Assembly: GCA_964611275.1 (NCBI GenBank)
Contig: CAZSZS010000037.1
Coordinates: 1 to 58,281 of the forward strand
Direction of reading: 5' to 3'
DNA: 58,281 nt
Source: an uncultured Eubacteriales bacterium
Lineage (GTDB): Bacteria > Acidobacteriota > Aminicenantia > Aminicenantales > Aminicenantaceae
Part shown: piece after piece, positions 10,958-11,818 of the stretch
Layout: each line of letters starts with the position of its first letter
How positions within the stretch are numbered: the stretch's first letter is position 1
Made by a program: the position numbers and the translations under genes
Notes under the pieces: model-generated
What the model was told of the DNA's origin: nothing
Database searches by the model: none
Seen by the model: the letters and a program-made list of their open reading frames with translations, nothing else

Positions 10958-11818
10958 TTGGACGATAAAGAATTAGTCATCATGCTCAACAGGGACCTGC
11001 GGGATGAACATGCCGCAGTGGTGCGCTACCTTATCCACAGTTATCTGGAAGGGGAGGATACGCCTCTGGGCGCCAGTCTCCTCTCAAGGGCTAGGGAAGA
11101 GATGTGGCACATGCATTGGCTCGGGAGGATCATTGCCCAGAAAGGAGGAGAACCGGATATGTTTCCAGCCGGGTATCCTTATGACCCGACCAGCCGGGCG
11201 ACCATATTTAAATCCTATGTGGCCTATGAGAAGAAACTGATACCTCATTACAACCAGGAAGCGGATAAAATGGATGACCCCCATATCAAAAGAGTTCTCC
11301 GAAGAGAGGCATGGGAATCAGATATGCATGCCGCTAAGTTCCAGAAGATTTTGGATAAGCTTTCTCCCCAAGAGGCTGATGGATTACCAGGGGGAGAAAA
11401 TGAACTGCCGGGGGAATTTGTGGACAAGCTTCAAACGGCTGTGGCTGCAAAATACACACAGATGCTCCAGCATATAAGGGATTCCTGGGTTTTCCAGAAG
11501 GATGCAGCAGAAGCATGGCAGATCATGGATTTTTCAATGACACAGATGAAACAGCTGGCCCATCTGGCTGAAGATGTGGCTGAAAACGGGATGACCCCCA
11601 GATTTGAACTGGGAGAGATAGACAAAAGTACTTCCATTGGCCTGGCTCTGGAGAGAGCTGTCCGCCAACTGGGGGAATCCAGCGGCAGACATATCCGGTT
11701 CACCAAGGATCCCGAGGCTCAAAAGCACAAAGGTTTCATGGTCAATCTGGATCTGACATTAAAGCAGGAACAGTATGAACAGGAAGAGATAGAGGATTGG
11801 ATTTCGAAAAAAAAGTGA
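10958..11818 (+). CDS. Tandem two-domain ferritin/bacterioferritin-like protein
   Basis: Domain 1: LNRDLRDEHAAVVRY..EEMWH..GGEP..YE..DMH. Domain 2 aligns to the same four-helix pattern (TQMKQ). TTG start with a GGAGG RBS. Confidence 0.8.
   Translation: MDDKELVIMLNRDLRDEHAAVVRYLIHSYLEGEDTPLGASLLSRAREEMWHMHWLGRIIAQKGGEPDMFPAGYPYDPTSRATIFKSYVAYEKKLIPHYNQEADKMDDPHIKRVLRREAWESDMHAAKFQKILDKLSPQEADGLPGGENELPGEFVDKLQTAVAAKYTQMLQHIRDSWVFQKDAAEAWQIMDFSMTQMKQLAHLAEDVAENGMTPRFELGEIDKSTSIGLALERAVRQLGESSGRHIRFTKDPEAQKHKGFMVNLDLTLKQEQYEQEEIEDWISKKK

Follow-up and report, generated by a model that had tools for sequence, protein, structure and literature searches.

Double ferritin-like proteins (DFLPs) have been defined as a set of 157 proteins that each consist of two domains derived from bacterioferritin (Bfr) (Anuchina et al., bioRxiv 10.1101/2025.09.13.676036). 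The same work demonstrated that TmDFLP and CaDFLP do not build cages but occur as dimers or monomers, as judged by size-exclusion chromatography with multi-angle light scattering and by small-angle X-ray scattering, that no shells are obtained from AlphaFold3, and that TmDFLP oxidises Fe2+, its ferroxidase activity being established by experiment. It was also shown that the di-iron ligand set EEHEEH is present in 79.6% of the N-terminal domains (NTDs) as compared to 57.3% of the C-terminal domains (CTDs), where 'ESHEEH' and 'KKQVEQ' are the commonest variants, the latter being found in 8.9% of DFLPs, and that both methionines equivalent to Met52 of Bfr are 100% conserved (Anuchina et al.). A C-terminal encapsulin-targeting peptide is carried by 56 of the 157 proteins, and the function of the group that has neither this peptide nor an encapsulin was called 'not clear' by the authors (Anuchina et al.). 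Another two-domain arrangement, the Asgard dFTN described by the same group, comprises two intact ferritin domains and builds a 12-chain shell (Remeeva et al., bioRxiv 10.64898/2026.08.25.747088). The gene considered here is an uncharacterised member of the DFLP family, an architecture that was already published in 2025-2026. It is a 286-codon open reading frame (ORF) with a TTG start and a TGA stop, located at positions 10958-11818 of the plus strand of contig CAZSZS010000037.1, the whole 58,281 nucleotides of which are referred to below as the window, and it lies exactly where a preliminary description of this DNA had placed it. With a probability of roughly 0.68, its product is predicted to be a cytoplasmic DFLP in which one chain mimics the antiparallel two-subunit unit of bacterioferritin, with a ferroxidase NTD, an intrachain tetrapyrrole and a soluble dimeric state.

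Membership in the family is evident from several lines of comparison. The best solved relative retrieved by phmmer was 9VIW_A (306 residues, annotated 'bacterioferritin', E 1e-19), both halves of which align to the NTD of the present protein, and the profile of the curated 136-sequence family alignment (A1) matches 9VIW, which is TmDFLP, from end to end (E 3e-81). In an exhaustive search of representatives the close homologues, hereafter the clade, fall into practically a single cluster at 50% identity (P0122); beyond it, the nearest relatives of full length are two targeting-peptide-bearing intermediates, P0127 and P0129, which align over their entire length at 38-39% identity. As in the described DFLPs, two four-helix domains occupy one chain, both halves are homologous and both Met52 equivalents are kept; of the EEHEEH ligands of the NTD five are in place and the sixth position is held by S121, a set (EEHESH) that also occurs in six targeting-peptide-bearing DFLPs. 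The targeting peptide, which like the accompanying encapsulin is a non-obligatory trait of the family, is lacking here, as is a Family-1 encapsulin.

The preliminary description had read this ORF as a single-chain, Bfr-like pseudo-dimer in which both halves keep the haem methionine and one half only keeps the ferroxidase ligands, an interpretation that is supported as essentially right, yet had been anticipated by the published account of DFLPs. The full-length AlphaFold2 (AF2) model (pLDDT 95.9, pTM 0.92) consists of two four-helix bundles and, between them, a short linker with defined structure, with helices at residues 3-31, 36-61, 80-103 and 108-134 in the NTD and 152-178, 180-208, 227-249 and 258-285 in the CTD. 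Pfam recognises only the first half, through PF00210 on residues 10-135, with no match on the second and a Rubrerythrin match barely over its cut-off (24.7 versus 22.8 bits). Direct comparison of the two halves is not significant, either by BLASTP (E 0.66) or by hhalign within the clade (E 0.13), but the CTD profile of the clade matches that of canonical DFLP CTDs (hhalign probability 99%, E 7e-18), which in turn matches the NTD profile (E 3e-37). Furthermore, a model of the CTD alone (pLDDT 93.2) superposes in Foldseek on bacterioferritins and mini-bacterioferritin with TMq 0.85-0.87 and a root-mean-square deviation of 1.9-2.0 Å, the Bfr of D. desulfuricans being the top match. It is thus through these transitive profile links and the fold match, the direct tests being non-significant, that the CTD is recognised as ferritin-like.

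Residue equivalences were taken from the alignment to TmDFLP/9VIW, from 200 full-length homologues and from A1. The Bfr positions E18, E51, M52, H54, E94, E127 and H130 correspond to E17, E48, M49, H51, E91, S121 and H124 in the NTD and to K165, Q196, M197, Q199, L238, E271 and E274 in the CTD. The NTD consequently retains five of six di-iron ligands (E17, E48, H51, E91 and H124), with Ser121 where the second bridging Glu would be, and the CTD, of motif KQQLEE, has no equivalent of E18, E51, H54, E94 or H130, its M52 and E127 equivalents (M197 and E271) being kept; a single di-iron site beside a degenerate half had been proposed beforehand, and the alignments bear out each of the residues named there, to which the retained E271 of the CTD is to be added. 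The Glu-to-Ser exchange is fixed in the close clade (122/122). Next to it, E117 and E120 are invariant in the clade, the clade-specific E117 being on the same helix face at a distance of one turn. At the level of sequence, the invariant S121 together with E117 and E120 suggests a rebuilt, possibly more labile, second iron site. As a separate observation, four CTD histidines (H172, H202, H245 and H257) are clade-specific and invariant or nearly so; canonical DFLPs have Tyr, Trp and Tyr at the first three positions and a variable residue at that of H257. H172 and H245 should share one layer of the bundle, and these histidines may form a new site.

Across the 136 sequences of A1, whose identities reach down to about 20%, the only invariant columns are M49, Y166 and M197, and each of the di-iron ligands varies somewhere in the set, unlike both methionines; the same two residues are present in 122/122 close homologues, so that the conservation in both halves which the earlier reading had put forward as a check was indeed found. 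In the crystal structure of TmDFLP (9VIW), the inter-domain pocket resembles that of Bfr and is lined by M48 and M198, with no haem visible, and TmDFLP and CaDFLP produced in E. coli display Soret bands that correspond to a haem occupancy of 3-8% (Anuchina et al.). Fe-coproporphyrin III is the natural cofactor of D. desulfuricans bacterioferritin and likewise of mini-bacterioferritin. Since the former protein ranks third among the solved relatives matched by the family profile, coproheme instead of haem b may, by analogy, be the ligand in the Desulfobacterota from which the gene appears to derive (see below).

On this basis, the following mechanism is proposed. The di-iron centre of the NTD would oxidise Fe2+, as extrapolated from TmDFLP and from Bfr chemistry, and the CTD would, much like an L-type ferritin subunit, be a structural partner without catalytic activity. 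Side chains of Lys, Gln and Glu probably occupy its former metal site, an arrangement for which the salt bridge of L-ferritin offers an analogy. The chief role of the CTD would be to provide the second axial methionine (M197), which together with M49 would bind one haem b or Fe-coproporphyrin III at the intrachain pseudo-twofold axis, and this tetrapyrrole may relay electrons to or from the di-iron site. The protein is probably a soluble dimer like TmDFLP and not a cage; of the two outcomes offered at the outset, an asymmetric cage unit or a non-cage redox protein, the latter would be favoured by analogy with the published DFLP dimers. Its function would be the detoxification of Fe2+ with O2 or H2O2 in an anaerobe. 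A cytoplasmic location is in line with the absence of a signal peptide by eye, helix 1 beginning at residue 3, and the 286-residue protein contains no Cys.

The clade is large and homogeneous. A word-indexed search returned 1098 proteins at E <= 0.001, and among the 120 matches listed nearly all measure 277-291 residues and are 64-92% identical to the query, the identity range of the clade as a whole being 60-92%. All 62 clade members in A1 share the NTD set EEHESH and a CTD set of the form K[KQN][QH][VLA][ED][EQ] (most commonly KKQVEE, and exactly KKQVEQ in three), and none carries a targeting peptide; most of the 74 distant DFLPs in the same alignment have EEHEEH/EEHEEH or a mild variant of it, and about three quarters of them end in [LFWY]T[VI]GSL. 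By the match of motifs, the published 'KKQVEQ' group may correspond to the present clade. The nearest outgroups (P0127, P0129 and P0135) have EEHESH, EEMWH and YP.DPTS as in the clade but bear the targeting peptide, and in P0129 and P0135 the CTD site is intact. From these features it is likely that the Glu-to-Ser exchange in the NTD came first and that the CTD site and the peptide were lost afterwards. With targeting-peptide-bearing DFLPs as the root of a maximum-likelihood tree, the branch leading to the clade measures 2.08 substitutions per site and the branches inside it are short. Mean pairwise identity within the clade is 82% for the NTD, where 63 of 132 positions are invariant at a level of at least 97%, 73% for the linker and 65% for the CTD, and at this degree of identity the 'dead' domain is still under constraint and not decaying.

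The hosts are anaerobes that belong to the Desulfobacterota, the Nitrospirota (Thermodesulfovibrionia) and a single genus of Aminicenantes, with more than 1000 sequences in all; among cultivable Desulfobacterales, the gene is carried by relatives of Desulfonema, Desulfococcus and Desulfotignum. It is present in 7/9 genomes of its own genus (including G001 and G004-G008) and in 0/22 genomes from elsewhere in the family or order; in the maximum-likelihood tree the nine Aminicenantes sequences group together with 100/100 support inside the Desulfobacterales. Taken together, the nested position and the restriction to one genus indicate that this genus probably acquired the gene horizontally from Desulfobacterota. 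With regard to taxonomic labels, copies on contigs binned as 'Sphingobacteriia' (L083) and 'Gammaproteobacteria' (L062) differ hardly at all from genes of Desulfotignum or Desulfobacterales (branch length 0), and metagenome-assembled genomes labelled 'uncultured Eubacteriales' (L012, L013, L015 and L016) group with the Aminicenantes clade; these are likely cases of mis-binning or mislabelling. When ORFs were clustered over 80 genome loci, only local synteny was observed (NAD kinase, acyl-CoA dehydrogenase), with VIT1 or CDF genes at a minority of loci, and a conserved operon partner was rejected. VIT1-family genes (one of them of 325 residues) flank the clade gene in L009/L010 (L009, 4469-6866), L029, L034 and L041, and one is also found in L044 and L058, all from Desulfobacterota; in one Desulfobacterota lineage the gene is tightly enclosed between two VIT1-family iron-transporter genes. 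CDF cation-efflux genes occur near it in L002-5/L050 (L002, 4608-5504), L044 and L060. This repeated vicinity of VIT1 and CDF genes is a recurrent link to iron export in several Desulfobacterota.

The clade appears to operate independently of Family-1 encapsulin. This family (PF04454, the only encapsulin family searched) is absent from the genome of the present host and from 34/34 other clade-carrying genomes, in a search that was positive in the expected control genomes, and the protein's C-terminus (...EQEEIEDWISKKK) does not contain the [LFWY]T[VI]GxL targeting motif. Matches to EncFtn and EncB models are partial, limited to residues 88-154, and far below cut-off (NF058679, 30.1 versus 90 bits; TIGR04535, 23.7 versus 125; PF22277, 12.9 versus 27). 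A role as encapsulin cargo was rejected because neither a targeting peptide nor a Family-1 encapsulin is present, these weak matches reflecting shared ferritin-like helices.

Several observations weigh against the proposed haem-binding ferroxidase. First, the bridging Glu of the NTD is lost, so that its ferroxidase activity cannot be assumed. Second, inter-domain packing rests on the pTM of 0.92 and on homology, given that Foldseek with the full model against the PDB returned single-domain ferritins only (TMq about 0.44) and not 9VIW, the best two-domain match being a poor one, 3HL1 (TM 0.50, root-mean-square deviation 6.4 Å). Third, the haem occupancy of the characterised DFLPs is just the few per cent cited above and the 9VIW crystal contains none. 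Fourth, a tblastn search of the host assembly (89.8% complete) with a congener's complete hem cluster (G001, L092 8484-17775, encoding HemA, B, C, D, L, CgoX-like, HemH and HemN-like) gave no match for HemA, B, C, D, H, CgoX or the HemN-like protein, and HemB is absent in 29/31 relatives, among them 6/7 gene-carrying genomes of the same genus; with this pathway not found, a tetrapyrrole would need to be scavenged. Fifth, gene neighbourhoods are mostly not conserved, and the long branch to the clade is compatible with a functional change. As to the supply of haem, it was considered that this organism might contain none, in view of the missing hem genes, a view that was softened because its genome encodes a 778-residue protein with seven CXXCH motifs, a 575-residue ORF with five, a protein with a monohaem cytochrome c domain and a CcsA-type cytochrome c assembly protein. 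The host therefore seems to use haem that it cannot make, and its lineage may be a haem scavenger.

Among the alternatives, one that appears unlikely is that the clade is a neofunctionalised DFLP and more than a cargo protein deprived of its shell, either as a small cage of its own with H-like and L-like domains at a 1:1 ratio, or as a di-iron oxidoreductase that depends on (copro)haem, or as a protein that buffers haem; the last of these, if true, would explain why the gene was gained horizontally and retained by a haem-auxotrophic Aminicenantes genus. Rather less likely still is that the protein carries no tetrapyrrole, whether in this host or in the clade, the methionine pair serving interface packing or another ligand or metal in a plain di-iron protein. 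The missing haem pathway of the host assembly and most relatives is in line with this, as is the finding that DFLPs and dFTN made in E. coli carry little or no haem, with none in their structures; however, packing alone hardly explains why both methionines are invariant in 136 sequences in which all di-iron ligands vary, the homologous methionine is a haem or coproheme ligand in Bfr and mini-Bfr, the host possesses c-type cytochromes and a protein for their assembly, and the donor lineage, Desulfobacterota, is haem-proficient.

A self-assembling iron store is quite improbable. It would be a closed shell of 6 chains (12 domains, resembling mini-bacterioferritin or Dps) or of 12 chains (24 domains, resembling dFTN), with the CTD acting as an L-chain and haem supporting iron release. 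Such a role would suit a protein encoded by the only PF00210 gene, and thus the sole ferritin-family gene, of its genome, in a group of hosts with Family-1 encapsulin in 0/35 genomes and strong canonical ferritin matches in 3/34 of the others (a second, weak ferritin-like ORF of 190-220 residues being found in about eleven). In addition, a two-domain ferritin with a 12-chain shell is known in dFTN, the single-domain protein 9QQ4, which has no E helix, forms 12-mers, the TMt of the CTD to 9QQ4/9QQ5 is 0.85-0.87, and the conservation of NTD and linker would fit many fixed interfaces. Set against these points, the nearest characterised proteins, TmDFLP and CaDFLP, are dimers or monomers for which AlphaFold3 gives no shells, and the model has no short fourfold-forming helix at the position of either Bfr or dFTN. 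It is no more probable that the EEHESH site is a rubrerythrin-like peroxide- or O2-reducing centre with haem as electron entry, that is, an oxidative-stress enzyme of strict anaerobes and not a protein of iron handling: the marginal Rubrerythrin match, the anaerobic hosts, the fixed clade-specific ligand change on a long branch and the predicted promoter of its own without iron-related neighbours in the window point in this direction, but neither a rubredoxin domain nor a rubredoxin partner lies nearby, the gene is flanked by VIT1 and CDF iron exporters in several Desulfobacterota, TmDFLP has been shown by experiment to be a ferroxidase, and the two activities are not mutually exclusive.

The fused Bfr dimer, in which an intrachain bis-Met pocket accompanies a single live di-iron site, is a real and widespread architecture, although as a concept it is no longer new. 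The role of encapsulin-independent DFLPs was left unclear by the authors who described the family, and the present clade is the cleanest test case for it, in view of its lack of co-occurrence with Family-1 encapsulin, its frequent status as the sole ferritin-family protein, its fixed unusual ligands and hosts that are apparently unable to make haem. The cofactor and the oligomeric state would tell whether these anaerobes link the oxidation of iron to storage, export or oxidant removal.

Local features of the gene and its surroundings are compiled in Table 1. The TTG start is supported by the ribosome-binding site, whose GGAG core is the same in 9/9 Aminicenantes orthologues, by the occurrence of TTG at the equivalent position in all nine of them and by a start column of the DFLP alignment that is common to 113/122 close homologues. 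The predicted promoter elements CTTGACC and AATAT are kept in 7/9 upstream regions of the Aminicenantes orthologues. No conserved Fur- or PerR-like palindrome was seen by eye in these aligned regions, and a scan revealed no terminator-like site. The upstream neighbour, on the opposite strand, is a truncated gene for an erythromycin-esterase-like lipoprotein. Further upstream, a tight cluster encodes an ECF-type sigma factor, a zf-HC2 anti-sigma factor and a 523-residue HEAT-repeat protein, for which no link to the ferritin-like gene is evident. Downstream, a 477-residue ORF with a twin-arginine (Tat) signal (RREFLGTCSACAAGV) and without Pfam match is situated between the DFLP gene and genes for a 409-residue protein and a DUF5916 protein; it was considered as a partner and rejected, being absent at the equivalent position in congeners (L006-L008).

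Table 1. Coordinates of the DFLP gene, its domains and proposed ligands, neighbouring genes, and haem-related genes elsewhere in the host genome (window positions unless a contig is named).
Feature	Position	Strand	Basis
ECF-type sigma factor, zf-HC2 anti-sigma and 523-aa HEAT-repeat genes, in a tight cluster (6376-9342)	8752-9342; 7959-8759; 6376-7947	-	
Sigma-70-type promoter, TTGACC-17 nt-TAATAT (predicted)	10890..10918	+	Consensus scan, 9/12 matches; consensus match and conservation
Ribosome-binding site GGGAGGG, 6 nt ahead of TTG	10945..10951	+	Read from sequence
Coding sequence, 286-aa double ferritin-like protein	10958..11818	+	ORF; more than 1000 homologues, about 285 aa among those listed; AF2 pLDDT 95.9, pTM 0.92
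N-terminal ferritin-like four-helix bundle, aa 1-135, di-iron set EEHESH	10958..11362	+	Pfam PF00210 on aa 10-135; AF2 helices
Codon of Met49 (Met52 in Bfr, Met48 in TmDFLP); first of two proposed axial haem ligands	11102..11104	+	136/136; aligns with 'QEMRH' of 9VIW
Inter-domain linker, aa 136-151, short helix 137-141	11363..11410	+	AF2, block pLDDT about 90-97
C-terminal degenerate ferritin-like four-helix bundle, aa 152-286	11411..11815	+	hhalign, AF2, Foldseek
Clade-specific CTD histidine codons H172, H202, H245, H257	11471-11473; 11561-11563; 11690-11692; 11726-11728		
Codon of Met197 (Met52 in Bfr, Met198 in TmDFLP); second of two proposed axial haem ligands	11546..11548	+	136/136; aligns with 'ESMFH' of 9VIW CTD
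477-aa ORF with twin-arginine signal	11872-13305	+	
Multihaem c-type cytochrome and CcsA-type genes of the host genome	C163:17320-19656; C182:10570-12297; C182:12197-13354; C185:7521-8135		

With respect to known systems, the closest resemblance is to TmDFLP and CaDFLP, which likewise consist of one chain of about 285-300 residues with two Bfr-derived four-helix domains, both methionines, a better-conserved site in the NTD and a degenerate one in the CTD, and which are also the sole ferritin-family genes of their genomes. Identity to either is about 25-30%. They differ in that the present protein has no [LF]T[VI]GxL peptide, no Family-1 encapsulin in 35 host genomes and an NTD of the EEHESH type. 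In TmDFLP the CTD set is ESHEEH, with one ligand gone, whereas in KQQLEE four or five are gone; Cys184 has no equivalent here, and the linker, disordered in 9VIW, is conserved and confidently modelled in the present protein. With bacterioferritin (E. coli Bfr, 1BFR; D. desulfuricans Bfr, 1NF4) each half shares the fold and the Met52 ligand, and the NTD shares the Glu/His di-iron site of Bfr type. Unlike bacterioferritin in the strict sense, which is a single domain of about 158 residues with a C-terminal E helix and a complete EEHEEH site, two subunits are fused here, with EEHESH in one domain and KQQLEE in the other and hence a metal site in one half only, no E helix is present in the model, and a 24-mer is not expected.

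The Asgard dFTN likewise has two ferritin domains per chain, a pseudo-twofold axis, a conserved methionine pair at the interface and an ordered linker, but it carries EEHEEH in both halves, an extra short helix after helix 1 of each domain and a 12-chain shell, whereas in the AF2 model of the present protein a four-residue turn joins helix 1 to helix 2 in both domains, and the CTD site is lost. Finally, the combination of catalytic and non-catalytic units of one fold is shared with mammalian H/L ferritin, with Bfr1/Bfr2 of Magnetospirillum (PMC6529640) and with hetero-Bfr (PMC12120770); in all of these, however, the units are separate chains that are combined at a variable ratio in a cage, whereas here they are held at 1:1 by fusion, with the haem methionine in both halves.

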